In this document: positions 19,013 through 37,523 of the stretch, one piece after another | How the letters are laid out: each line of letters opens with the position of its first letter | How positions within the stretch are numbered: position 1 is the stretch's first letter | Notes under the pieces: generated by a model | Databases searched by the model: none | What the model was told of the DNA's origin: nothing | The model's input: only the letters and a program-made list of their open reading frames with translations | Assembly: GCA_913040915.1 (NCBI GenBank) | Contig: CAJWHW010000017.1 | Span: 1-40,501 of the forward strand | DNA from: an uncultured Fidelibacterota bacterium | GTDB taxonomy: Bacteria; Fidelibacterota; Marinisomatia; Marinisomatales; UBA1611 | DNA length: 40,501 nt | Reading direction: 5' to 3' | Program-made: the position numbers and the translations under genes

Positions 19013-19044
19013 ATAAAGCCCTTCTAAATTAAGAAAGGCTTTAT
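19013..19044. terminator. Probable bidirectional terminator
   Basis: ATAAAGCC...GGCTTTAT inverted repeat with inner TTCT/AGAA pairing between convergent genes. Confidence 0.6.
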
Positions 19045-20525
19045 TATATAATCCTTAAAAAAATATACATAATCAATGGAGAAAAGGCCGTATTGAACAG
19101 ATTGACCATATCATTATTGATCCAAGGATTACCAGAGATAAGGATGGCATCCTTAATCGGTTTTTCAATTATTTCCCCTTTTTGTGTTTCATATTTGGCC
19201 TGAATAGTTGCTCCAAGGATTGAATCAAATATAGCGCCTAAAAATCCACAGAAAATTATTCCATAAATTATAAAACTAGGCATTGGATGAATAATCCAAA
19301 CAGTAAAGCCAATCAGGCATGATCCAAGCAACGATCCTATAATGCCAATTCTAGTAATACCACCGGAAAGACCATGCTGTATTTCTTTCAAGTCTAAAAT
19401 TGATATTGGTTTGTTCTTAGATAGTTTGCCTATCTCAGTTGCCCAGGTGTCAGCCATTGCTGCACTTACAGAAGCATAAAATAATAATAGATTGATCGAA
19501 CTTGGATTAATAAAATTATAAATACATAATATTAAAGAAATACCTCCATTTGCATAGACTTGTATGATATCCCTTTGAGACCCTTTTGTTCGATAAAAGG
19601 AATTACTCTTAGTTATCTTACTAATAAAAGAAGAGAAGATAAAAAAGACTGCTAAAGGTACTAAAAACTGCCAACTACCAATTAACATTATAATAATGCC
19701 CATAATCAAACTACCAAAATATCCGCTTCTTGAAAGTGACTTGAGCTTATAGGCCAATAATAAAAGGAGAATGATAATTAATAGGAGAATAGAAAATTCT
19801 GTAATTGTCAAATCAAAGAATTGTTTGGAACCTGTAAAACGGTGCACATAACCAATCATAAATATTATACTTATTATTGGGATAGATAAATTATCAGTTC
19901 CATGCTTACTTGTAGCCTCAGCAATTGTCGCACCAATAGCAGTAAATAATGCCATACCGAATAAAAATATATTCGAATAATTAAATAATATTTGCGATGA
20001 TATATAGATTAATATTAAAGATGATGAAAAAAAAGTTATGGTACCTTGCAAAGATTTATGATCTTCCCAGATAGTAAAACTTAACGGATTATCAGTAGAC
20101 GAGCCGACATGGGCAGCTAATGGATCTGATATTGTCAATATTAAAAGAGAGATGATAATAAATCTAGGGTATGACCAAAATGCAATTACAATAAGCAAAT
20201 AAGCCAATGGAAAATAAACCGTACCATACGTTTTATTTTTCTGTGAATGTATACCTTGGAATACATCTTTTTTAAGAGTATAAAAATTTAAAATTGTGAA
20301 AATAAATGCGAGACATGCAGGTTGTATATTTGAAAAAAAAACTAAGGGTGAAAAGGAAATAAAAACCCCAATGAAGAAATGAATCAATCTTCGATTAGAT
20401 TCTTGGGGAATTAAACCCGATTTATTTATTTGCTCACTTAAACCAACTATACCTAGTATAAAAATTAATAAAAACCAAAAGGTTAGCCATTCATTCGCAA
20501 AAGGTAACCAGATAGGAAAAGTCAT
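19044..20525 (-). CDS. Fused phytol/dolichol-kinase-like (CTP_transf_1) and DUF92 membrane protein
   Basis: N-half RRLIH, SDPLAAHVG, KSLQG, GTDNLSIP; C-half RDIIQVYANGG, ADTWATEIG, GLSGGIT, DSILGATIQ, NNDMVN. Confidence 0.85.
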   Translation of the reverse strand: MTFPIWLPFANEWLTFWFLLIFILGIVGLSEQINKSGLIPQESNRRLIHFFIGVFISFSPLVFFSNIQPACLAFIFTILNFYTLKKDVFQGIHSQKNKTYGTVYFPLAYLLIVIAFWSYPRFIIISLLILTISDPLAAHVGSSTDNPLSFTIWEDHKSLQGTITFFSSSLILIYISSQILFNYSNIFLFGMALFTAIGATIAEATSKHGTDNLSIPIISIIFMIGYVHRFTGSKQFFDLTITEFSILLLIIILLLLLAYKLKSLSRSGYFGSLIMGIIIMLIGSWQFLVPLAVFFIFSSFISKITKSNSFYRTKGSQRDIIQVYANGGISLILCIYNFINPSSINLLLFYASVSAAMADTWATEIGKLSKNKPISILDLKEIQHGLSGGITRIGIIGSLLGSCLIGFTVWIIHPMPSFIIYGIIFCGFLGAIFDSILGATIQAKYETQKGEIIEKPIKDAILISGNPWINNDMVNLFNTAFSPLIMYIFLRII

Positions 20526-21228: not shown

Positions 21229-21257
21229 TTGCCAATTAGCTAATCCGAAATTATATT
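21229..21257 (+). promoter_or_regulatory. Candidate sigma70 promoter for FN3/pseudo-caspase cluster
   Basis: TTGCCA-N17-TATATT, then SD GAGG before ATG 21282. Confidence 0.45.
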
Positions 21258-21281
21258 GGCACGTAAAAAAACCGAGGTAAA

Positions 21282-24200
21282 ATGAAGGGGATGAAATTCA
21301 TTCTTAAATTGTCTATTTATAGACGATATCCTGTCCTATTAGCACTCCTTTGGACATCCTATATTTATGCCCAAGAATATTCAATTTCAGGTCGGGCATT
21401 CAATGAAGCTGGTAAAAAGATTGGTCCCATTCGTATTGTGCTTTATGATATTGAAAAGAAAAAAATTGTAGATTTTGAAACACCAAAAAGTGGAAAGTTC
21501 AAGCTAAAGAAAATTCAAAATGGTAATTATACCATGAACTTTTATGCAGCAACAGGGCATGCAGGATCAGAAAATATTTCAGTGGATGGTGCGAATGTAG
21601 ATATAGAGCCTGTACTTTCAGCAATTGATGACCAACCACAAGTATTGGCTAAATCTGTGGTTGATGGTGTAGAATTAAATTGGCGTCAAACTCCAGGATC
21701 GATCAGGTTTATTATTTTTAGAGATAACAATGAAATTGGTGATGTAACTGAAACTATATTCGTTGATAAAATACAACCTGGTACAACTTATTCCTATAAT
21801 GTATTACCGGTAAAAAATGATGAATCAAGAGGTACTCGCTCCGTAACTGAATATGGAAAAGCCTTGTTACCTTCCCCTCAAAATATCACAGCAGAAGCGA
21901 GAAAAAATATCGTGAAATTATCTTGGGATCCTGTTGATGGTGCTAGTGGATATAATGTGTTTCGTGATGGTGAAATGGTTAATTCAACATCAGACAACTC
22001 CTATATGGATTTTAAATTAAAATATGATACGGAGTATTCTTATACCTTAGCAGCACTAGATCACCAAAGTGATGAAGGTGATAAATCCCTTGCTGAATTT
22101 GCGACGACGCATCAAGAAATGGTTCAGCCTGAAAAACTTATTGCAGAAAGCGGTCCCGGTCAAATGGTGCTGACATGGGAAGAAGTCTCAGGTGCAGTTA
22201 AATATCTCATTTATTTGAATGGAGCTCTCACAGATTCATCCGAAACTCTTTCAGCTACAATTCCAACTGAACCTGGGGCAGATAACTGTTTTACAGTTTC
22301 TGCAAAGGATATGCATGGGACAGAAGGTCCTCAATCAAAAGCAGCCTGTGATAAAAGCGTTTATCCACCACCGGATTCAATAAAAGCCACTAATGAACTA
22401 AGTAAAAACCTAATTAATTGGAAATTTGTTGATGGCGCTTCATCATATAATATATACAAAGATGGCAAATTGTTAACAAATACAGCAAAACAGCAGTATT
22501 ATGATAAATCGATTAAATGGGATAAAGAGTATGAATATCATATTACTTCAATGACAGAAGATGGTATTGAAGGACCAGAATCAGAGAAATACAAAGTTAA
22601 AGTGCCACCTATTTATGTGATAACCGGTGAATTAATTGATGAAGATGGAAGTTCAAAAAATGTAGATCAAGCTAAGGTTTTTCTCTATGCCGAGGGTGGT
22701 AAGCTCAAAGAAGAATATATTGTTTCTAGTAATGGTAAATTTAGGTTTGAAAGGGAAGTTATTTCTGGAGAATACACCATAAAAGCCTATGGTAATGGTA
22801 GCGGTAATGGTGGTGATAGAATTCAGATTCAAAATAAAGATTTAAAAGGATTACAGATAAGATTATCTACAGATGGTTTAAGGTCTGAAATAAATGTAGA
22901 ACGAGGAGTAGAACAGCTCACAATACATTGGAAAGATATTCCTCAAGCTAAGGCCTATGTGGTTTATAAAAATAATCGTCTTATTGCGACAGTTGAAGAC
23001 ACACTATCATACTTAGATCCAGATGTAGCTCCAGGAATACCAACAACTTATGACGTCAGATCAATTGATATTTACGATCTGGAAGGTCCCAAATCAAATG
23101 AGGTAACTGAGACATCTTCTTTCAGACCACCAGAAATTACACCACTTGTCGTCTCTGGAGGATACACCGAAGAAGGAAGTGGCCGAATTATCAAATTAAG
23201 TTGGACTCCAATTGCAGGTGTCAATGTTTATGCTTTATATAGGGATGGAACACTCCTTTCAAAACAATCGGAAACAGAATATGAAGATTCTGATACTCAA
23301 TTTGGGACAACCTATCATTACGAAATAAATTCTATTGATAAAGATGATATAGAAGGTGTTAATTCAGAAAAACTACCGGTTACAACACACCCGGAAGTTA
23401 TAGATCCAAAATTCAAATTGACATCATTGGTTAATTCAGTCTCATTAGATTGGCCGGCGCTAGGTCCAGCCGTAAATTATAAAATTTTTCGAAACGGGAG
23501 TAATATCGCTGACACACCTGATACGTTTTTTGTCGAGAATATTAAACCTGGTGTTGATTATTGTTATACTGTAGCTGCAGAGGATGAATATCAGACTGTT
23601 GGTCCACAGAGTGAAATTAAATGCGGACGAGCTTATTTTGCGCCTCCTGGGAATTTTTCAGGACAGGTAAACCGGAATGAAGTATTCTTAAGCTGGACAG
23701 GTATTTTAGGTGTTGCTGGATACCGCTTATATAGAGATGGTGAATTGATTTTCTCTACACCTGATGGGACAGAGTATTTGGATAAGGGACTTGAATTTGA
23801 CAATAATTATTTATACGAAATGGCTAGCATTGATCAGGATGATGTTGAGGGTCCAAAAGTTGATATTAAGCTATTAACTCATGAAGAAGTATTACCAACT
23901 GAAGTTACTGGCGAAGCTGATCTTGAAAAAATTTCGTTGGTTTGGAAAAAATCATTATTGCGGGTAGATCATCGATACCGAATTTATCGAGATGGTGAAT
24001 TGTTAGATGAATTAAAAGATACTAGCTATCAGGATATTGTACCTGCAGGTCAAAACTATTGTTATGTTATTCATGTTGTCGACAAGTATGGAACTGAAAG
24101 TTTGAAATCGAATGAAGAATGTCATAAGGTTCTGGTAAATTTCCCCAAAGATTTATCTGTAGTAGGAGATGTAAAACGTGTGCTTTTTAATTGGAAAAAT

Positions 24201-26066
24201 ATGGTAGGTGGAGAATTTTATAATATTTATATAGTTGATAAGAAAACTGAGGAAAAGACAATACATACGAAGACAAAGCAAAACTTTTATGAGCATAAGG
24301 ATTTGGAATTTGATACAGAATATTGTTACATGGTATCAAGTATTGATAAGGATGGCGATGAAGGCCCCTTATCGCCAATGCAATGTGGTTGGGTATTGCC
24401 ACCACCGCATTTAACTTTGGTTGAAAAACGATTTGTTGAAGGTTCAGGAAATGGAATTTTAGATGGACGTGAGCATGGTTGGATAATCGCAAAGATAGTC
24501 AATGATGGCCGCAGTCCTGCACGAGAATTAAAACCCTGGCTTGAATCAATTGAAGGCGCAGTCACACCATCTTTGAAAATTGATTCTGTGGCTATGATAC
24601 CTAAGTTAGATGTAGGTGATACTTTGACCATCCACTTTTCTTTATATGCAAAGCTAAAAATTGAATCTGGAGAGAGAAAATTCAATATAAGAATCAATGA
24701 ATTCACAGGTGTTGATCTAGATCCAGAACCAATCTCATTTGAAACATTAAAAATTATTGCACCAAATTTGGTTGTAACAGATTTTGCTATTGATAATGAT
24801 TGGGGGCAGAATTACATACCAAAAAATGAAACAGTGACAATATCTGTCCGTATACAAAACCTTTCCGAAGGAAAGTCTGATACTGTTAGTGTCCGCTTTC
24901 GAAGAGATAGTTCATTTGTATCTGATGATGCAGATGAATTACATCAATTCGGGTTTGTAAATGCAGGTGAAGTTTTAGATTTTAAATTCGAAATCATGAC
25001 ACGGCAAGATCAATTTACAATTAATTTAGAGCTTTATGATTATTTTGAAACGCGTCAGGATATCCAGCTTCATTTAGAGACAATGAAAAAGTATAAAAGG
25101 TCTGATGAATTAATTGTTTATGAAACACCATATCCGGATAATTTAACCATTGCAGAAGCACCAATTACACCGGAAATAATTACGAGTATTCCGGAAGTAT
25201 CAACTGATAGACAAACAATTGGTATAGTCTTGGGGAATTTGAATTTTTGGAATCCCGAGATCAAAGGTAAAGTTTCAACAACTGAAAATTTAAAAATGGT
25301 TCGGGAATATTTCCGTGAACTATTTGGAATAGAGGATCATGCAATTGTTCCAAGTCAGTACTGGTTTTTTAATGATGGAATTTCTAGTCGTGATTTTCAA
25401 GCAATTTTTGACCCTGACATTGGATTCGTCCGCAAGAAAATTGAATCAAGTCTTGATTATTCAGGTCATGATGCAATGGATCTAATTTTGTATTATAGCG
25501 GTGAGGGAACTACTTTTAACGGTGAAAAAGTTTTAATTCCGTATGATGCTGACACAACTAAAGATTATTCATTTTATTCAGTAAAAGATTTATATAAAAG
25601 TCTATCTGAACTTCAAAAATTTGAACAAGTAGGTGAAATCACAATTTTTATGGATGTCGATTTTAATAATTCGGCGTTTACTCAACATATTGTCAAGGCC
25701 GGTTCTGAAGAAGAAAACGGTAAAAAGAAAAAGAAGAAGAAGAAAAAGAAAAAAGGTGCTGAACCAGAGGTTATTCTACCAAAAGAAATTATGCCTCCCG
25801 AATCTATAACGGCATTCTATGCATCTAATACGACTCAGATTACCTATGATCATCCTGATAAAGGGAATACAATATTTACCTATTATCTCCTGCGTGGATT
25901 ACGTGGAGAAGCGGACAATGGGGATAAGGAAGTAACTGTAGCAGAATTACATAATTACATTAGTAAACATGTTTCTGAGTCTACAGGAAAACTATATAAG
26001 GAATTGCCGCAAATGCCTCAATTGTTCTCTTCAAATCCAGACAGGGTACTTTATAGACTACCCTGA
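21282..26066 (+). CDS. Large exported protein: 2 carboxypeptidase-regulatory-like domains, about 10 FN3 repeats, Ig/CARDB-like domains, C-terminal caspase-like (C14) domain without catalytic dyad
   Basis: Signal peptide; repeated L.W...Y.IYRDG...Y.D...Y.Y.V...EG..S; IFTYYLLRGLRGEADNGDKEVTVAEL..Y...QMPQ; YYSGEG and FMDVDF replace SGHG and DAC. Confidence 0.85.
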   Translation: MKGMKFILKLSIYRRYPVLLALLWTSYIYAQEYSISGRAFNEAGKKIGPIRIVLYDIEKKKIVDFETPKSGKFKLKKIQNGNYTMNFYAATGHAGSENISVDGANVDIEPVLSAIDDQPQVLAKSVVDGVELNWRQTPGSIRFIIFRDNNEIGDVTETIFVDKIQPGTTYSYNVLPVKNDESRGTRSVTEYGKALLPSPQNITAEARKNIVKLSWDPVDGASGYNVFRDGEMVNSTSDNSYMDFKLKYDTEYSYTLAALDHQSDEGDKSLAEFATTHQEMVQPEKLIAESGPGQMVLTWEEVSGAVKYLIYLNGALTDSSETLSATIPTEPGADNCFTVSAKDMHGTEGPQSKAACDKSVYPPPDSIKATNELSKNLINWKFVDGASSYNIYKDGKLLTNTAKQQYYDKSIKWDKEYEYHITSMTEDGIEGPESEKYKVKVPPIYVITGELIDEDGSSKNVDQAKVFLYAEGGKLKEEYIVSSNGKFRFEREVISGEYTIKAYGNGSGNGGDRIQIQNKDLKGLQIRLSTDGLRSEINVERGVEQLTIHWKDIPQAKAYVVYKNNRLIATVEDTLSYLDPDVAPGIPTTYDVRSIDIYDLEGPKSNEVTETSSFRPPEITPLVVSGGYTEEGSGRIIKLSWTPIAGVNVYALYRDGTLLSKQSETEYEDSDTQFGTTYHYEINSIDKDDIEGVNSEKLPVTTHPEVIDPKFKLTSLVNSVSLDWPALGPAVNYKIFRNGSNIADTPDTFFVENIKPGVDYCYTVAAEDEYQTVGPQSEIKCGRAYFAPPGNFSGQVNRNEVFLSWTGILGVAGYRLYRDGELIFSTPDGTEYLDKGLEFDNNYLYEMASIDQDDVEGPKVDIKLLTHEEVLPTEVTGEADLEKISLVWKKSLLRVDHRYRIYRDGELLDELKDTSYQDIVPAGQNYCYVIHVVDKYGTESLKSNEECHKVLVNFPKDLSVVGDVKRVLFNWKNMVGGEFYNIYIVDKKTEEKTIHTKTKQNFYEHKDLEFDTEYCYMVSSIDKDGDEGPLSPMQCGWVLPPPHLTLVEKRFVEGSGNGILDGREHGWIIAKIVNDGRSPARELKPWLESIEGAVTPSLKIDSVAMIPKLDVGDTLTIHFSLYAKLKIESGERKFNIRINEFTGVDLDPEPISFETLKIIAPNLVVTDFAIDNDWGQNYIPKNETVTISVRIQNLSEGKSDTVSVRFRRDSSFVSDDADELHQFGFVNAGEVLDFKFEIMTRQDQFTINLELYDYFETRQDIQLHLETMKKYKRSDELIVYETPYPDNLTIAEAPITPEIITSIPEVSTDRQTIGIVLGNLNFWNPEIKGKVSTTENLKMVREYFRELFGIEDHAIVPSQYWFFNDGISSRDFQAIFDPDIGFVRKKIESSLDYSGHDAMDLILYYSGEGTTFNGEKVLIPYDADTTKDYSFYSVKDLYKSLSELQKFEQVGEITIFMDVDFNNSAFTQHIVKAGSEEENGKKKKKKKKKKKGAEPEVILPKEIMPPESITAFYASNTTQITYDHPDKGNTIFTYYLLRGLRGEADNGDKEVTVAELHNYISKHVSESTGKLYKELPQMPQLFSSNPDRVLYRLP

Positions 26067-26110
26067 TTGATCTCATCGTTTTGAGAGCTTTTTTGTTTTT
26101 CCCCTTCCAC

Positions 26111-29056
26111 ATGTCGCGGAAAATAATTTTATTTTTATCCTTTGTAGTCTTTCTTACTGCAAATCCAGTTTCTATTTCGGGTGTTATACATAATCTCGAA
26201 AATAAACCTGTAAAAAAAGCAAAGGTGACAATCCGAAATTTAAAAGATGAAGTATTGATGGAGGAGGTAACAAATCGGAAGGGTAAGTTTGTTTTTAAGG
26301 AAGTTGAACCAAAATTTTACTTTTTATTCATTGAACATGAGAATGATGGAAATAAACGAATAAAAATTAATCCACGAAAAAAGAGAAATAGAGATTTGGT
26401 TCTGAGTCTAAAACTGACAGGAGAAGATAAAGTCCAATGCTATTTATATTCTCATAATAAGCCAACTGACCATGACCCAATACTGAATGTCAAAGGACTA
26501 CGAGCCACAACGAAAGCAGAATATATTATTATTGAATGGAATGATATAAAGCAAGCTAATAATTATATCTTATACGAAAATGGTATCGAAATATATCAGG
26601 GTAGAGAGAATAGATTTGAAAAAAATGAATTACCTGGAAAGGAGTTCTGTTATTCTGTTCAAGCTATGGGGAATTTTGGATTAGAGGGACAGCGATCAGA
26701 AGAATACTGTACGAGTGTACCTACGACAATACCCAGAGATATTAAGATAGATGTTTCAAAAAATCAATTAACTCTAAAATGGTCTGCTGTAAACGGGGCT
26801 TTATCTTATATTATTTATAGAAACAATGAAAAAATTATTAATACTGATATAACATCTTATAAAGATTCTGGCCTTGAATTTGGAACCGATTATTTCTATA
26901 AGATTTCTGCATTGGATGCTTTAGATAAAGAAAGTCATCCATCAGTGGAAGTGAAGGGAACTACAAGAGGATTTATTGGGTCACCAATATTGGCATCTAT
27001 GAAAAGTGAATCCAGAATCATGCTGATATGGAATGAAGTGAATAATGCCGAATCCTACAATATTTATCGAGATGGTGAATTAGTAACTTTTATTCAAACA
27101 AATACCTTTGAAGATATTATGCCTCCCGGTGAAAATTACTGTTACGAGATTACTTCTGTAGATCAGTACGGTGTGGAAAGCGATCGATCGAATAAACATT
27201 GTACAAAAGTACCAATTCAGCCACCTAAAGGTCTGACTGCAGATGGAGATGTGTCATCGATACATTTAAACTGGGATACTGTAGAAGGTGCTATCTATTA
27301 TAAGATTTATGAAAAGGTGTCTCAGGATTCGGCCAAATTCATTATAAAGGTTAAATCAAACCAGTATACGGTTCGAAATTTGGATTATAGTGCAGATAAG
27401 TGTTACCTAGTAACTGCTTTGGATCCGGAAGGTGAAGAAACAGGCTATTCATCATCTGCATGTAATATGGTATTTGAGTCGCCCCATTTCACAATTCAAA
27501 AGATGACGCTTATTGAGCCATCGGGCAATAGTACTATTGATGCATTAGAACAAGGTACAATCCAATTTTCAGTTTTCAATGATGGTCAAAGTCCATCATA
27601 TAAAGTAAGTATTTCTATTGTACCAAAAAATCCTAATCAAAACTTGTCCTTTGAAAAGCTGATTGTGATTGATACCCTAGCTGCAGGAAGAATTAAGTTT
27701 GTTGATTTTGATCTGGAAGGATTATTGAAATTAGAGACAGGCGAACAAGAATTTGAATTAAAACTTTTATCGCAAGAAGATATAGGTTTGGATAATCCCT
27801 ATCATTTTATGATTAAAACTAAATCAGTTATTCCTCCAAAACTAATTATTGCTGATTTTGCTGTTTCAAATGATTTTGGTACACACTATATACCTAAAAA
27901 TGAAATCGTAACTCTTACCTTGAGAATCCAAAATGTAGGGGAAGGCTCTTCTGAATCCGGAATTATTGAATTGTCTGCAAAACAAACATATTCTACACCA
28001 AATTTCACCGGAAGTTTAAGTCTCCCATCCATGAATCCCGGTGACTATGTCGATTTAGAAATCCCAATTTTAACACTTCAGGATAATTTCGCTATAGATT
28101 TTATTTTAACAGATTATTTGGATAAGGCAGCCGTACAAAGGATTGATCTAGAAGTGATGCGTCACTATCGTTCTCCCTTGGAACTTACCATACAAAATAT
28201 TGGTGCTGGTAATGTAGATTATTATCCGGACGAATTGGGTGAAATTGATGTAGATCGCCGTATTCCTTTAGGAAGAAAAAACCCCAATGCCATGGCAATT
28301 ATTTTAGCAACGGAGCGGTACGATGATAAAAATTATCCAGAGTTAGAATTTGCAAACCGCGATGGCAGCGTTATGAGACGCTATTTTAAACAAGCTTTTG
28401 GATTATCTGATTTTCAATTATTACCAGCCAAAACTTGGCAAATGGAAGGTGGGCCATCAGAAAATGATTTTCGCAATATTTTTGACCCACACCAAGGTGA
28501 CTTAAGAAAACGTGTATTAACAGCGGAAAAATATTCAGATGTGGAAGAAATGGATATTTTTATATATTATCGTGGATATGGTGAATGGATAGATGGTAAA
28601 CCTCTTTTGGTACCAAAAGATGCAAAGCTGAATAGGCATGTAACTAAATATCCACTAGAGCAATTAGTTAACAATTTATCTTTATTATCAGTATTAGCAA
28701 ATATTAGCACAATAACTTTATTTATGGATATTACCTATATCAACCCAAAGAGATCTATGGTATCTATATGGGATTTTCCGGATTTACCTGAAAAAATTTG
28801 CATTTTAAATGCTGCTTCAATTGGTGAGACTTCTCAGGTATATGAAGAGAAAAAACACAGTATTTTTACTTATGCACTTCTAAAAGGATTAGCTGGTAGT
28901 GCCGATGATGGTAATAATGTACTCGAATTGGGAGAACTCATAGAGTATATCTATAAGTCTGTACCGGAATTTGCAAGAACTGTCCCAAATGCTTCCAGAC
29001 AAAATCCTGCATTCAATGGCGTAGATCTCAAACGTACAATTCTTGATCTTAGATGA
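26111..29056 (+). CDS. Paralogous exported protein: 4 FN3 repeats, Ig/CARDB-like domains, inactive caspase-like domain (probable start ATG 26111)
   Basis: Signal peptide MSRKIILFLSFVVFLTA; DVDRRIP..KNPNAMAII, FANRD, HSIFTYALLKGLAG.AD, QNP; YYRGYG and FMDITY. Confidence 0.85.
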   Translation: MSRKIILFLSFVVFLTANPVSISGVIHNLENKPVKKAKVTIRNLKDEVLMEEVTNRKGKFVFKEVEPKFYFLFIEHENDGNKRIKINPRKKRNRDLVLSLKLTGEDKVQCYLYSHNKPTDHDPILNVKGLRATTKAEYIIIEWNDIKQANNYILYENGIEIYQGRENRFEKNELPGKEFCYSVQAMGNFGLEGQRSEEYCTSVPTTIPRDIKIDVSKNQLTLKWSAVNGALSYIIYRNNEKIINTDITSYKDSGLEFGTDYFYKISALDALDKESHPSVEVKGTTRGFIGSPILASMKSESRIMLIWNEVNNAESYNIYRDGELVTFIQTNTFEDIMPPGENYCYEITSVDQYGVESDRSNKHCTKVPIQPPKGLTADGDVSSIHLNWDTVEGAIYYKIYEKVSQDSAKFIIKVKSNQYTVRNLDYSADKCYLVTALDPEGEETGYSSSACNMVFESPHFTIQKMTLIEPSGNSTIDALEQGTIQFSVFNDGQSPSYKVSISIVPKNPNQNLSFEKLIVIDTLAAGRIKFVDFDLEGLLKLETGEQEFELKLLSQEDIGLDNPYHFMIKTKSVIPPKLIIADFAVSNDFGTHYIPKNEIVTLTLRIQNVGEGSSESGIIELSAKQTYSTPNFTGSLSLPSMNPGDYVDLEIPILTLQDNFAIDFILTDYLDKAAVQRIDLEVMRHYRSPLELTIQNIGAGNVDYYPDELGEIDVDRRIPLGRKNPNAMAIILATERYDDKNYPELEFANRDGSVMRRYFKQAFGLSDFQLLPAKTWQMEGGPSENDFRNIFDPHQGDLRKRVLTAEKYSDVEEMDIFIYYRGYGEWIDGKPLLVPKDAKLNRHVTKYPLEQLVNNLSLLSVLANISTITLFMDITYINPKRSMVSIWDFPDLPEKICILNAASIGETSQVYEEKKHSIFTYALLKGLAGSADDGNNVLELGELIEYIYKSVPEFARTVPNASRQNPAFNGVDLKRTILDLR

Positions 29057-29123: not shown

Positions 29124-29654
29124 ATGGATAGAATTTTGTCATTTTTGCTCGTAGTCTTAGTAGCAGGAATGATTTTTGGCTGGAGAGAATATGAATATCG
29201 CGCCAAGGAATCAGCAAAACAGACCAATATTGATACAACCATTGTTCAGGAGATTCATTCACATCCAGTTAGAGATGCACAGAGGGCACAACTGGAGCAA
29301 ATGGCTGGAATAGAAAGGTCAAAAGTGAAAGTGATGGTAGAGCATGATAACTCACCACTGACGAATACATACCCCATGATTATGGATGCAACAGAGTCAT
29401 ATGATCCTGATTTGGGTGATAGAATTCATTTCAAATGGAAACAGATCTCTGGCTCATCGGTAGAACTAAAACCCAATAATTATTCAGGCAAAGTGAGTTT
29501 TGAAGGTACTGCAGGAGAATATACCTTTCAATTATCTGTCTCTGATGATTATGGTGCTGTAAACACACTGATAAAAACTGTAGTGATTGAACCTGAGCCA
29601 AATACAGCTCCCGTTATAGAAATGAATATCCGGCAAGGGTCAGAATTGAAATAA
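29124..29654 (+). CDS. Membrane-anchored PKD/K319L-like Ig-domain protein
   Basis: N-terminal TM; DATESYDPD.GD.I.FKWKQISG, GEYTFQLSVSDDYGA, PEPNTAP. Confidence 0.75.
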   Translation: MDRILSFLLVVLVAGMIFGWREYEYRAKESAKQTNIDTTIVQEIHSHPVRDAQRAQLEQMAGIERSKVKVMVEHDNSPLTNTYPMIMDATESYDPDLGDRIHFKWKQISGSSVELKPNNYSGKVSFEGTAGEYTFQLSVSDDYGAVNTLIKTVVIEPEPNTAPVIEMNIRQGSELK

Positions 29655-30715
29655 TGACCTTTAAAGATTTAACGTTTTTTTCTAAAACTACCTTTTATTC
29701 AACTATCATTTTATTTTATCTCAGCTGCGAATCTATTACAACCGATCAAAGTAAAGCTGAATCCGATGATGGGGATATGGATAATATCTATGAATCCATA
29801 ACCATTACATATCCAATTGGAGGAGAATCTCTTGACCCTGGTACGACAATACCCATTACCTGGGAATCCACCATAGAGGCCTGTGAATGGGGTGTAAACA
29901 TCGTTTTGCTTCGTAATGGACAAGATGAGTCTAATATAGCAATTAATACGCCTAATGATGGATCATTTGACTGGTATATTAACGGAGAGTTGGAATCTGC
30001 TCATGATTACCAAATCAGGATAGATGGATTGTGCTACAATGGTAATTACTGCATCGGTTGCATTTACAGTCAAAGTCAGGCGACCTTTACCATTTCCCAA
30101 AATGTAGTTGAACCCTATATCACTCTATTATCTCCAAACGGCGGTGAAAATATTGAAATTGGAGGAGATTCTTTGCGGGTGCTTTGGGAGACGAATCTGC
30201 CAGACTGTTTTTTCGGTTTTAAGATAAGTCTATATCAGGTTGAAGAACAAAAAGCAATCCTGGCTACCAGTGTCAAAAATGATGGTGATCAAAACGTTTT
30301 TATATCTAATTCCTGGAATTTAGAAAATGGGAATAATTATAAAATCTATTTAGAATCTTTGTGTGAGAATTCCACTACTTATTGTGGTGGTTGTTATGGT
30401 GACTATAGTGATGAAACTTTCCAATTATATTCCAATCAATTGAAAGTAATTAATCCAAACGGTGGTGAAGAATGGACCCGTGGTGAAACAAAGACAATTA
30501 CCTGGACAAATGATAGTACAACGCAAAACATTCGTATAGAACTGTATAAAGACGGATCTAGATTACAGGATATTGAATATAATTTAGAGAATAACTATTC
30601 TTTCGATTGGATATTACAGAATACATTAATTCCTGATGATGATTACCAGATTAAAATAACTAGCTGGGAAACCAATGTGTCAGATTTAAGTGATAATAAT
30701 TTTGCAATAGAATAA
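29654..30715 (+). CDS. Probable lipoprotein with three Kre9/Knh1-like (Ser/Thr-rich GPI-anchored family) Ig repeats
   Basis: Lipobox-like FYLSC; three P.GGE...I.W...Y.I.I....S...F.I repeats. Confidence 0.72.
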   Translation: MTFKDLTFFSKTTFYSTIILFYLSCESITTDQSKAESDDGDMDNIYESITITYPIGGESLDPGTTIPITWESTIEACEWGVNIVLLRNGQDESNIAINTPNDGSFDWYINGELESAHDYQIRIDGLCYNGNYCIGCIYSQSQATFTISQNVVEPYITLLSPNGGENIEIGGDSLRVLWETNLPDCFFGFKISLYQVEEQKAILATSVKNDGDQNVFISNSWNLENGNNYKIYLESLCENSTTYCGGCYGDYSDETFQLYSNQLKVINPNGGEEWTRGETKTITWTNDSTTQNIRIELYKDGSRLQDIEYNLENNYSFDWILQNTLIPDDDYQIKITSWETNVSDLSDNNFAIE

Positions 30716-34544: not shown

Positions 34545-37523
34545 TTAAATTCCGCTGGATTCTTCTTCATCCATTTTTTCTACATCTTTTTTTCTTGGCT
34601 TTTGAATAATACCCTTACCGGACATACCATCTAATATAACCTTCATATTTGATTCTAGATGGTAATGATCCAAATATTTTGTACTTTCAACTAATGAACT
34701 TTCCTCAAGCCATTCTATATCTAATAGATCATTATTTTGTTTCGAATCAATAGTTAGGTAACCAATGTGCAGACTAGTTATATTTTGAAAAAAGTGACTG
34801 CCAAATGATGGTTCAACCGGTAAATTTTCTCTACCCACTTCAACAATTACTTTTGCTTGAGAAATTTGCCGCCAACTGACTGGAATTCCAAGCCAGGGGT
34901 CTGATGAACCCCATCGTCCCGGTCCACAAAGAATGTATTGTTTGTCAGAATTGAACTTATTATTGATTTTCTCTACTTCATTTGCAATCTCAACTGTTTT
35001 CGCTGGGTCAAATGAATCTTCTCTCACAATTACAATATCCTGTATAGAATTAATTTCTCCGTCTCCCAGTGTTATTTGGCTTTTACAAAAAATTATAGAT
35101 TCATCATTCGTTTCTTTTTGAATATTTCGCAATCCAGTCAAGACCATTGGTTTAATTTGTAATAAATAAAATTCAGGTTTTTGATCAGTGTAAAGATTTA
35201 CAGCAAATTCTATTTCAATCGGGCACCCTAAAGCAGTTTGACCAATGGCTAAAATTCTTTCCATGATATTTGCCAGTCGTATCTTATTCCATTTAAGAAT
35301 GGGTGCAAATGATACAATACGTGTTCCGGGTATTGTCAATGAATCCCTAATTGTATTGTCATCTGATGAAATCACACTGCCTACAGATTTAAATGAGCCG
35401 TCTTCTTCTGCATATTTCAGTGGAAATGCACTGAGGTCTTCTCGTGAACTTTTACGAGAATTAAGATCAATGGCATAAAATTGTACTTGGCTATTTTGTC
35501 TTGATGCTTTTGGAGAGTAAAACTGTGGAATTATAGTAGGGTATTTTGGGGAAATAAAAAGACATTTTTCTCCGTCTACAATTGTTCGGCCAAATCCCAG
35601 TGCTAAATATGCTACTCCTTCATCACGCTTCATATAAGAGACGGGATAATAATTAATGCTTTTTAAGACGCCGCTGATTGTAGGATAAAACCGTTTACTG
35701 GTATAAGGTTTCCCCACAACTTCCTGAATGATTACTGCCATTTTTTCTTCTTCAATTCTATGAGCTGTATTTTGTAGTAATGATTTCGCTTCTCCTTTAA
35801 AGGTAGATGCAAATACCCTTTTTATCGCTATCACTAGCTTAGTCAGCCTGTCTTTGGATGTTTTGGAATTATTTGGAAGCATTATGGTTTCATATGTTCC
35901 TGATAAAGGTTGGTATTGAGAATCTTCCAATAAACTGGATGAACGGACTGCAAGTGGATATGTATGATCATGGATAAATGATTCTAATTTGAGCATCAGA
36001 TCAACTGATAACCGAGCATTTATAAATTTCTGCTCTAATTTTTCGTAATCAGAATATTCAAGTGCTATTTTCCAGAGCTGGTTATCCTTCATAAAAAAGT
36101 CAAATTCGTTCGTTCCAATTACGGCGCAGTGTGGAACCCGAATCACTGTATCTTTAAATTCGTTTTGAATTTCTGAATATTTTATCATTGATCTTGCAAA
36201 AGCTAAACCTCTTGCTTTCCCACCTAAAGAACCACCGCATAGTCTGAAAAAATCAAGTTTTTCTTTATTAAATCGTGCTGATGTATAATCCATTACCCTC
36301 GAATCAGGTTCATTCTGTTTTGCTTGCATACATTCCAATAAATAATCTCTTAAGAGTTCACCAGTCTCAAATTGATGGACAAAAACAGGTCTGAGCTTTG
36401 ATGCGAGTTCAAATTCTGTGCGGGCAGCAAGCCAATTTGAAAAATGATGGCTTTTTGCATGATAAACTACCGATTCCACCGGAATTTTTTTAAGGCACTG
36501 AATGAATTCATCAATATTGGATGCAGAATCAACAGTAGTATTATCTGATAGGCGGAAAATAAAATCTCCAAATCCGAAATTTTCGATGATAAATGATCTC
36601 AGGTCAGTTAGAAGTGTATGAGAACCTTTATGTAGAAATGCAGCATCAACTTTTTCTGCCAATTTACTATTTTTCAAATCAGTGGACTGTAACATAATCG
36701 GGATCGATGGATCCACGGAACGTACCCATTTTGCAAATTTCAGTCCCGCTATTGGATCATTAATACCTTTTTTAGGAAAACGAATATCTGAAATAACACC
36801 GATTGTATTGTTTTTATATTTGCGTATGAACTTCTGGGCAGTTTCAAAATTGGGAGTTAACAATATTTTTGGGCGACCACGTAGATGCATTAATTTTTTT
36901 GACTGACTTAAACCACGATTAACCAAATTTTTGGTTTGGTACATAATCTCTTTATAAATCATTGGTAAAAGAACTGAATACATCCTTGGAGAATCTTCTA
37001 ATAATAGGATGGACCGAACATCTCCATTGCAGATATCTTCTTCTGCATTTTTTCTGTCTTCAACATACTTAATAATTGCAGGAAAAACAATTGCATCGCC
37101 AGACCAGATAAATACACGATTAATTGATTTTGGCGTGATAGTTTCAGGAAGTTGTTTCAATTCAGATTCATCGAATGCTAAGAGAATAACCGGTTTTTTA
37201 GGATATCGTTCCTTAATTGCGGTTCCTAAAGTGATTGGGTTCTGATCTGCTATACGTAGCATAACGATAATAAGATCATATTGTTTTTCACTCATCGCTT
37301 TCAGTGCTTCAATTCCAGTTGATACTCTTGTTACCCGAGGAGCATAATTAAAATTCATGCCGATATATTCGGACAATATTTGTTCAGTTAAATGCCCATC
37401 TTCTTCAAGAATAAAAGCATCATAAGGGCTAGCCACCAATAGAATTTCGTGAACACGATGGGCCATAAGATCCTGAAAATCGAATTTGGATTTATTCCCA
37501 ACAAAAAAATCAGCCATAGTCAA
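34545..37523 (-). CDS. Receiver-domain and PPDK_N (PEP/pyruvate-binding ATP-grasp) protein; probable start ATG 37517
   Basis: LGGKARGL, LAVRSSSLLEDS, IKRVFAS, EEKMAVIIQEVVG, ALGFG, IEIEFA, FYLLQIKPM; REC motifs LLEDS...VISDIRFP...QS...K. Confidence 0.88.
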   Translation of the reverse strand: MTMADFFVGNKSKFDFQDLMAHRVHEILLVASPYDAFILEEDGHLTEQILSEYIGMNFNYAPRVTRVSTGIEALKAMSEKQYDLIIVMLRIADQNPITLGTAIKERYPKKPVILLAFDESELKQLPETITPKSINRVFIWSGDAIVFPAIIKYVEDRKNAEEDICNGDVRSILLLEDSPRMYSVLLPMIYKEIMYQTKNLVNRGLSQSKKLMHLRGRPKILLTPNFETAQKFIRKYKNNTIGVISDIRFPKKGINDPIAGLKFAKWVRSVDPSIPIMLQSTDLKNSKLAEKVDAAFLHKGSHTLLTDLRSFIIENFGFGDFIFRLSDNTTVDSASNIDEFIQCLKKIPVESVVYHAKSHHFSNWLAARTEFELASKLRPVFVHQFETGELLRDYLLECMQAKQNEPDSRVMDYTSARFNKEKLDFFRLCGGSLGGKARGLAFARSMIKYSEIQNEFKDTVIRVPHCAVIGTNEFDFFMKDNQLWKIALEYSDYEKLEQKFINARLSVDLMLKLESFIHDHTYPLAVRSSSLLEDSQYQPLSGTYETIMLPNNSKTSKDRLTKLVIAIKRVFASTFKGEAKSLLQNTAHRIEEEKMAVIIQEVVGKPYTSKRFYPTISGVLKSINYYPVSYMKRDEGVAYLALGFGRTIVDGEKCLFISPKYPTIIPQFYSPKASRQNSQVQFYAIDLNSRKSSREDLSAFPLKYAEEDGSFKSVGSVISSDDNTIRDSLTIPGTRIVSFAPILKWNKIRLANIMERILAIGQTALGCPIEIEFAVNLYTDQKPEFYLLQIKPMVLTGLRNIQKETNDESIIFCKSQITLGDGEINSIQDIVIVREDSFDPAKTVEIANEVEKINNKFNSDKQYILCGPGRWGSSDPWLGIPVSWRQISQAKVIVEVGRENLPVEPSFGSHFFQNITSLHIGYLTIDSKQNNDLLDIEWLEESSLVESTKYLDHYHLESNMKVILDGMSGKGIIQKPRKKDVEKMDEEESSGI

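Follow-up and report, generated by a model that had tools for sequence, protein, structure and literature searches.

Two adjoining genes for predicted exported proteins with pseudo-caspase domains behind fibronectin type III arrays in a Marinimicrobia lineage

Introduction

Pseudo-proteases are common, yet a function has been assigned to few of those found in bacteria. Work on bacterial pseudo-orthocaspases, caspase homologues in which one or both residues of the catalytic dyad are replaced, has so far dealt mainly with phototrophs. A survey of 2019 described these proteins as a class (PMC6426788). According to the part of that survey used here, to which all statements about it below are limited, pseudo-variants make up 8.6% of bacterial caspase homologues and occur mostly in Alphaproteobacteria and Cyanobacteria, the orthocaspases being distinguished from metacaspases by the absence of a p10 domain. 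The commonest pseudo dyad is Tyr/Ser (YS), and an exported form has been proposed, with a signal like that of twin-arginine translocation (TAT) on cyanobacterial YS variants; the five Marinimicrobia rows in the part of its Table S1 used here all carry the intact His/Cys (HC) dyad (PMC6426788). Here, we describe two adjoining genes, P1 and P2, from an uncultured Fidelibacterota bacterium of the Marinimicrobia (Marinisomatota) lineage (GenBank assembly GCA_913040915.1), whose predicted exported products carry arrays of fibronectin type III (FN3) domains and almost certainly end in pseudo-caspases. The genes lie within positions 1 to 40,501 of contig CAJWHW010000017.1, and this whole stretch of 40,501 nucleotides is called the window below.

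P1 and P2 resemble the surveyed pseudo-orthocaspases in having a C14 caspase-fold domain with both dyad residues replaced, in the retention of an acidic pocket Asp (although the first pocket Asp is mostly Asn in P1) and, for P2, in a Tyr plus Ser/Thr dead site that fits the commonest chemistry (PMC6426788). They differ in layout: the surveyed proteins combine an N-terminal p20 domain with C-terminal extensions, whereas the domain of P1 and P2 is C-terminal, behind FN3 and CARDB-like domains. They also differ in occurring in Marinimicrobia, in forming a tandem paralogous pair, and in the Glu/Asp combination of P1, which is not among the dyads named. A Marinimicrobia pseudo-variant, an FN3/CARDB layout and a tandem pair are all missing from the part of the 2019 survey used here (PMC6426788), and literature on Marinimicrobia together with caspase, or with fibronectin type III, yielded nothing relevant. 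An earlier reading of the window from its letters (the original prediction) had held that no characterised system is like this one; this stands for the layout, the tandem pair and the Marinimicrobia pseudo-variant, but not for bacterial pseudo-caspases as such, which are already known as a class. What is new is the lineage, the FN3/CARDB layout in which the caspase-like domain comes last, the conservation of two paralogues in tandem, and the invariant Glu/Asp/Asp set and Lys-rich loop of P1, so that P1 and P2 extend the known class to a new lineage and layout.

Among eukaryotic proteins, c-FLIP(L) and Trypanosoma brucei MCA4 are likewise caspase-fold proteins that have lost the dyad and are maintained by selection, and c-FLIP acts by pairing with a paralogue. 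Unlike P1 and P2, which are predicted to be exported, these are cytosolic or membrane-associated proteins that act with an active paralogue, whereas the genome of the window, in an assembly that is 85% complete, shows none. The pair allows a clean comparison, since its two dead domains have a common origin and are encoded by adjoining genes in an abundant marine lineage with streamlined genomes (about 2 Mb); both are strongly constrained, active relatives occur in neighbouring families, and one of the two domains has an invariant acidic replacement of the dyad. The pair is for this reason a tractable system in which to study what role a caspase fold can have after it has stopped cutting, and it points to an unstudied envelope component of Marinimicrobia.

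Lost catalytic dyad and caspase fold of the C-terminal domains

Gene 1 (P1) occupies 21282..26066 on the forward strand and encodes 1594 residues. Gene 2 (P2) follows on the same strand at 26111..29056; its open reading frame (ORF) opens at a TTG at 26081 (991 residues), and its true start is probably the ATG at 26111, which gives 981 residues, because an orthologue 98% identical to it has exactly this length. Both frames are open throughout, as the original prediction had said. The domains in question form the C-termini, at 25191..26063 in P1 (residues 1304-1594) and at 28271..29053 in P2. Orthologues were grouped into a P1 family of 43 members (the window protein, P0088 and 41 more) and a P2 family of 86 (the window protein and 85 orthologue clusters).

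A HMMER scan of 1.84 billion representative sequences with the P1 domain gave 3252 proteins at E<=0.001, and the dyad was surveyed in an alignment of 112 rows, namely the two window domains and 110 full-domain matches from the best 150 of the 3252. His and Cys (..GHG.. and ..DAC..) occupy the dyad columns in 104 of the 112 rows; only eight rows differ, all from the two window families. Profile alignment places these columns on the GHG and DMC motifs, that is the His and Cys, of the paracaspase MALT1. The motif at the His site of P1 is YYSGEG (25491-25508), with Glu1408 at the catalytic His position (25503..25505), and that at its Cys site is MDVDF (25650-25664), in which the triplet Asp1458-Val-Asp1460 (25653..25661) puts Asp1460 at the Cys position and Asp1458 two residues earlier. 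All three acidic residues are kept in 43/43 family members, within segments (SGEGTT and FMD-x-DFN) that are invariant or nearly so. P2 reads YYRGYG (28565-28582) and MDITY (28724-28738) instead, with Tyr833 (ORF numbering; 28577..28579) at the His position and Thr885 (28733..28735) at the Cys position. Among its 86 family members the former position is Tyr in 73, Leu in 12 and Phe in one, and the latter is Thr in 72, Ser in eight, Lys in four and Arg in two.

A conserved replacement Cys was found in neither family, in which the domains hold 0-1 (P1) or 0-2 (P2) Cys residues each; the window P1 domain has none, and the sole Cys of the window P2 domain is substituted in relatives. Since the dyad is absent from every member of both families that was seen, these are not active C14 cysteine peptidases, and the two domains are incapable of cysteine proteolysis. 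The four motifs named in the original prediction were thus located exactly, and its claim that both dyads are lost through different substitutions extends to both families in full.

The fold itself is borne out by several lines of evidence. The Pfam profile PF00656 (Peptidase_C14) matches P1 at 37.3 bits (cut-off 21.4) over profile positions 52-232 of 233, and P2 has no match to this profile at E<=0.1, though several of its orthologues have precomputed PF00656 matches; the Pfam check proposed with the original prediction thus succeeds for FN3 in both proteins and for Peptidase_C14 in P1 only. P2 matches NCBIfam caspase models weakly. Its domain is nevertheless 34% identical to the P1 domain (E 1e-23). 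AlphaFold2 models built from 49-row alignments have a mean predicted local distance difference test score (pLDDT) of 90.4 and a predicted template modelling score (pTM) of 0.88 for P1, and 95.3 and 0.93 for P2. The low-confidence part of the P1 model is confined to a linker at about domain residues 160-200, which contains a run of Lys. Foldseek against the PDB ranks MALT1 paracaspase first for both models (E 7e-10 for P1, 1e-11 for P2), with caspases among the further matches of both, legumain among those of P1 and metacaspases among those of P2. The P1 model, the only one aligned with VIA-align, superposes on 3h11_B, a chain of the caspase-8:c-FLIP complex, with Z 21.1 and a root-mean-square deviation of 2.7 over 212 aligned residues, and on Arabidopsis metacaspase-4 with Z 20.6. 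Direct phmmer searches of PDB sequences with either domain returned one chance match and nothing else; it took a profile from the family alignment (A1, 49 rows) to reach MALT1 and metacaspases. The Pfam match and the modelled fold extend over the complete C14 unit, the part beyond the linker included. On these predicted structures, both C-terminal domains have a caspase fold.

Former pocket and Lys-rich loop

The Asp two residues before the Cys position (Asp1458 in P1, Asp883 in P2) is invariant, being present in 49/49 rows of alignment A1, 43/43 of the P1 family and 86/86 of the P2 family. In sequence and profile alignment it corresponds to the pocket Asp of MALT1. A second candidate pocket residue, the Asp of an 'RD' motif before helix 1, is kept in 86/86 of the P2 family; in the P1 family this position is Asn in 31 and Asp in 12, with a neighbouring Glu or Asp in 36/43. 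In TbMCA2 the two acidic S1-pocket residues are Asp95 and Asp211, of which Asp211, the counterpart of the Asp before the Cys position, is a ligand of the Arg or Lys at the P1 position of the substrate, and other pseudo-orthocaspases keep two acidic pocket Asp residues and have been argued to be able to accommodate basic substrates (PMC6426788).

The linker after the Cys position of P1, which is the part modelled with low pLDDT, holds 11 consecutive Lys residues (25722..25754, forward strand). A Lys-rich loop with at least 7 Lys in a 16-residue window is present in 41/43 of the P1 family, compared with at most 5 in the P2 family. Phase variation at the poly-Lys tract was considered and rejected, as its codons are a mixture of AAA and AAG with no long homopolymer.

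Domain layout and kinship of the two proteins

In order from the N-terminus, P1 comprises a putative signal peptide, a prealbumin-like domain, four FN3 repeats, a second prealbumin-like domain, six FN3 repeats, two CARDB-like domains and the pseudo-caspase; P2 comprises a putative signal peptide, one prealbumin-like domain, four FN3 repeats, two CARDB-like domains and the pseudo-caspase. All of these features lie on the forward strand. Signal peptides were judged by eye from the translations, by a basic n-region, 13-15 hydrophobic residues and Ala at -1. The putative signal peptides so recognised cover 21282..21371 in P1 (residues 1-30) and 26111..26161 in P2 (17 residues), both with Ala at -1. 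Pfam fn3 scores 57.1 bits in P1 (E 2e-15) and 36.9 bits in P2 (E 4e-9) against a gathering cut-off of 25, and an iterated repeat hidden Markov model (HMM) finds 10 repeats in P1 (4 + 6) and 4 in P2, each at E<=1e-21. The P1 array extends over 21657..24377 (residues 126-435 and 542-1032) and is split by a CarboxypepD_reg-like (prealbumin-like) domain at residues 447-528, delimited by Pfam and the repeat HMM; the P2 array lies at 26513..27454. CarboxypepD_reg is above the Pfam cut-off in both proteins. The CARDB-like beta-sandwich domains are weaker matches, and their bounds are approximate: the pair in P1 lies at 24402..25181 (about residues 1041-1300), where the CARDB match at residues 1167-1216 is below the Pfam cut-off, and that in P2 lies at 27506..28270 with 21.7 bits, just under it. 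Both pairs contain the shared motif DFA..YIPKNE.VT (24780-24839 in P1, 27854-27913 in P2). This motif and a second one, FDP..G, had been pointed out in the original prediction along with the signal peptides and FN3 arrays, and all were found in place.

The two proteins are 30% identical over 875 BLASTP columns (E 2e-130), with residues 701-1566 of P1 collinear with residues 129-963 of P2. P2 thus matches the C-terminal 870 residues of P1, that is four FN3 repeats, the two CARDB-like domains and the caspase-like domain. A likeness so far beyond chance identifies them, by sequence comparison, as paralogues. Lengths are near-constant in both families across at least five genera, about 40 of the 43 P1 members having 1581-1642 residues and most P2 members 963-1006. 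Two antisense ORFs of 101 and 126 residues run inside P1 (24187-24706, reverse strand), and the longer one is matched in two related loci. There is no sign that the latter is a gene, its matches being those expected from the shadow of a conserved frame.

Origin and active relatives

The closest relatives outside the two families are exported active proteins with the same CARDB-like plus C14 supermodule, uncharacterised 'caspase family proteins' from Marinimicrobia and other bacteria, whose domains are 30-39% identical to those of P1 and P2 and share with them the FTY.LLKGL.G.AD segment and the invariant Asp. Where P1 and P2 have the FN3 array, these proteins have WD40, Laminin_G or nothing recognisable, followed by CARDB and a C-terminal C14 domain, and most have signal-peptide-like starts as judged by eye. 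Since the N-terminal module changes among them while CARDB and C14 are kept, the latter two form the constant core. Unlike P1 and P2, they retain YYSGHGAP and FLDACFSG in all 104 His/Cys rows of the dyad survey and in 23 further loci (L011-L033) from outside the window's family, which are all of this active type (YYSGHGAPD ... FLDACFSG; 25-33% identity); they also lack two insertions found in P1 and P2, and no tandem pairs were seen among them. After the FTY.LLKGL.G helix, the active relatives have an EF-hand-like 12-residue loop (D-x-N-x-D-x-x-[IL]-T-x-x-E), which is one residue shorter in both dead families (about 25905-25950 and 28895-28940 in the window).

In a maximum-likelihood tree of 49 rows (LG+C20), a branch with support 98/95 separates the P1 and P2 families together from the 37 active rows. 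Both families are monophyletic, and their inner branching orders largely match. The two insertions, identified in alignment A1, are common to both families and missing from the active rows. By this phylogenetic evidence, the dead domains share a single origin within the widespread exported active group of variable N-terminal module, CARDB and C14, and the simplest history would be one divergence from an active exported protease followed by duplication, before the family radiated.

Synteny and selection

Matches to the P2 domain occur in 42/201 sampled genomes of the phylum. In the family to which the window belongs, all six other genomes carry a P2 orthologue, and a P1 orthologue lies directly upstream on the same strand in five, while a contig end cuts the sixth. 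As far as the contigs reach, the gene order is kept: amidohydrolase, a 146-residue gene, DUF92 (opposite strand), DUF3228, P1, P2, a transmembrane-PKD (TM-PKD) protein and a ROK kinase. The TM-PKD protein (29124..29654, forward strand; 176 residues) has an N-terminal transmembrane helix and a Pfam K319L-like_PKD match (E 9e-8), and its orthologue follows P2 in 5/6 related loci, the contig ending first in the sixth. It could possibly be a membrane anchor or partner. At one related locus (L034, 7915-9261), a stretch of about 1.3 kb lies between the P2 orthologue and the TM-PKD gene, compared with 67 nt in the window.

The dead domain is the most conserved part of the protein, or tied for it, in 7/9 comparisons between window and orthologue proteins, with identities of 53-64% for P1 and 43-66% for P2. 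The ratio of non-synonymous to synonymous substitution rates (dN/dS), estimated by the Nei-Gojobori method for a single congeneric pair (L037 and L038), is 0.044 for the whole of P1 and 0.140 for the whole of P2. It falls to 0.025 and 0.066 in the dead C-terminal domains, compared with 0.050 and 0.183 in the rest of the proteins. By these estimates the dead domains are under strong purifying selection, and relaxed selection is excluded. In the same pair, the synonymous rate dS is uneven along the locus (P1 0.33, P2 0.23, PKD gene 0.12, ROK kinase 0.06), with only 12 synonymous changes each in the latter two genes; the unevenness could reflect recombination or a different regime of mutation or selection on the large genes.

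The original prediction had described the pair as maintained, which the synteny across one family and the low ratios confirm. It had also named three outcomes that would speak against it, namely C-terminal domains without a caspase fold, an alternative His or Cys in the active site, and close orthologues with an intact dyad that place relaxed selection in this lineage alone. None of them was found: the models and fold searches give a caspase fold for both domains, no substitute Cys is conserved, and the dyad is lost under purifying selection in every orthologue seen.

Possible functions of the dead domains

Because they are so strongly conserved, the domains probably bind something. We favour, with moderate confidence, the reading that they are non-catalytic binding modules carried on FN3 stalks in the cell envelope. 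P1 and P2 would be two paralogous, Sec-exported envelope proteins of this Marinimicrobia lineage, whose dead domains, set on spacers of FN3, prealbumin and CARDB type and either periplasmic or surface-exposed, may bind a ligand, probably a basic peptide or cation, with what remains of a metacaspase-type acidic S1 groove. In P1, the former active site would have become an invariant Glu/Asp/Asp cluster adjoining a flexible Lys-rich loop, and in P2 a dead site of the common Tyr/Ser type; the two proteins, probably together with the membrane-anchored PKD protein, would act jointly. A bolder version, which we regard as speculative and improbable, makes the three-carboxylate pocket and tethered Lys-rich loop of P1 a gated receptor with a built-in pseudo-substrate latch, to which cations or basic peptides would bind, and P1, P2 and the PKD protein an envelope-spanning sensing or capture device specific to this abundant marine lineage. 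The loop presumably sits at the place of the basic autoprocessing linker of metacaspases.

Several points weigh against the binding-module reading. The case for binding consists of conservation and of likeness to other pseudo-enzymes, and that for export of N-termini judged by eye; moreover, a Sec signal by itself would leave them periplasmic, and neither protein showed a signal for sorting to the surface. The pocket is not simply kept, as its first Asp is mostly Asn in the P1 family, and the assignment of pocket residues leans on sequence alignment. The dN/dS values derive from one congeneric pair, in which the two domains differ by just 8 and 14 non-synonymous changes. The clade of P1 and P2 unites long stems (1.38 and 1.13 changes per column), so that long-branch attraction is possible, although the shared insertions argue against it. 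Finally, the strict invariance of Glu/Asp/Asp in the P1 family could mean new chemistry rather than binding alone.

This last point leads to the alternative that P1 Glu1408, Asp1458 and Asp1460 form a new catalytic or metal centre, such as a carboxylate hydrolase or a Ca2+ or other cation site, with P2 as a non-catalytic partner, which we consider unlikely. The segments SGEGTT and FMD-x-DFN are (near-)invariant in 43/43 members, above most of the domain, the dN/dS of the P1 domain is the lowest measured here, and Glu/Asp is absent from the common dyads named in the survey, which are YS, YA, FS, QC, HA, YN and YG (PMC6426788). However, such invariance equally fits a binding site, and the P2 family has no comparable chemistry at its dyad positions. 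We also know of no carboxylate catalysis in a clan CD fold. Rather unlikely, too, is that P1 and P2 are structural proteins in which the FN3/prealbumin/CARDB array is the functional part, as a surface layer, spacer or adhesin, and the caspase fold is a mere plug for folding, oligomerisation or anchoring whose groove has no part in ligand binding. The tightly fixed architecture and length (about 40/43 of the P1 family within 1581-1642 residues), the purifying selection on the repeats as well (0.050 and 0.183) and a layout typical of surface proteins agree with this; what disagrees is that the dead domain is best or tied-best conserved in most comparisons, that the former pocket residues are among the most invariant, and that in the active relatives it is CARDB plus C14 that stays constant while the N-terminal module changes.

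The eukaryotic precedent suggests that the pair could act in the manner of c-FLIP, pairing with and controlling an active caspase-family protease, or that P1 and P2 associate obligately with each other across the interface used by caspase dimers, a heterodimer having been suggested in the original prediction. In favour are the tandem arrangement and joint inheritance of the genes, a top VIA-align match to a chain of the caspase-8:c-FLIP complex (either of the two proteins), and an active HC homologue encoded elsewhere in 2/6 related genomes. Yet protein and family-profile searches of the window's own genome (85% complete) found no other caspase-like domain, and a query with the P2 domain shows only the pair in 4/6 related genomes, which makes it unlikely that acting alongside an active paralogue is a general role. 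A PF00656 search of the whole genome returned nothing and missed P1 itself, being too coarse for domains so divergent. Many metacaspases and orthocaspases are monomeric, and complex prediction with the two C-terminal domains, run without controls, gave scores of 0.02 and 0.00 against a mark of 0.32, which is no answer either way. Taken together, we rate such pairing as quite improbable. That the proteins are former proteases decaying under relaxed selection in one lineage only has a negligible probability: dyad loss would agree with it and nothing further does, whereas both frames run unbroken through 1594 and 991 codons, with lengths near-constant across at least five genera, dN/dS lies at 0.025-0.18, and the substitutions are fixed in 43/43 and 86/86 members.

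Genomic and expression context

The window is core chromosome, with a ribosomal-protein operon and genes for urocanase, amidohydrolase, DUF92, DUF3228, ROK kinase, glutamate dehydrogenase, PGK and TIM, in an assembly of 1.86 Mb in 71 contigs. The names that its database relatives bear assign it to Marinimicrobia / Neomarinimicrobiota. None of P1, P2 and three neighbours matched a defence-system family in PADLOC. The intergenic gaps are 44 nt between P1 and P2 and 67 nt between P2 and the TM-PKD gene, and a sequence scan found no terminator-like sites between the three genes. Together with the constant linkage, these observations are suggestive of co-expression of P1, P2 and the TM-PKD gene.

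A promoter scan was at chance level, with 53 promoter-like sites against 51.6 expected; two sites matching 10 of 12 positions lie just upstream of P1 (21229-21283) and are a hint only. In the marine metatranscriptome library X18, five short contigs, 95-100% identical, fall inside P1 and P2, and three other RNA runs yielded no contigs from these genes. Contigs in an RNA library are no proof, just as nothing follows from stretches that they leave uncovered, and we regard those from X18 as a weak hint of transcription. A contig of 184 nt from a marine RNA library (21251-21423) begins, after 11 letters without a match, 31 nt ahead of the start codon of P1 and beside the promoter-like sites, which is too thin for calling a transcription start.

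Downstream of the TM-PKD gene, and overlapping its stop by one base, lies a gene (29654-30715, forward strand) whose 353-residue product begins like a lipoprotein and has Ig-like repeats of the Kre9_KNH / Big_7 type. In the six related loci, no orthologue of it stands between the PKD gene and the ROK kinase, which makes it look like a gene inserted into the cluster in this lineage alone. Upstream of P1, on the reverse strand, a 493-residue membrane protein (19044-20525) has its DUF92 match at residues 250-481 only; its N-terminal 250 residues are hydrophobic and have no domain assigned, and the gene is kept in the related loci. Further along the window, a 992-residue protein (34545-37523, reverse strand) joins a response-regulator receiver to PPDK_N, the ATP-binding domain of pyruvate phosphate dikinase, with an additional DUF5752 match, an unusual fusion.

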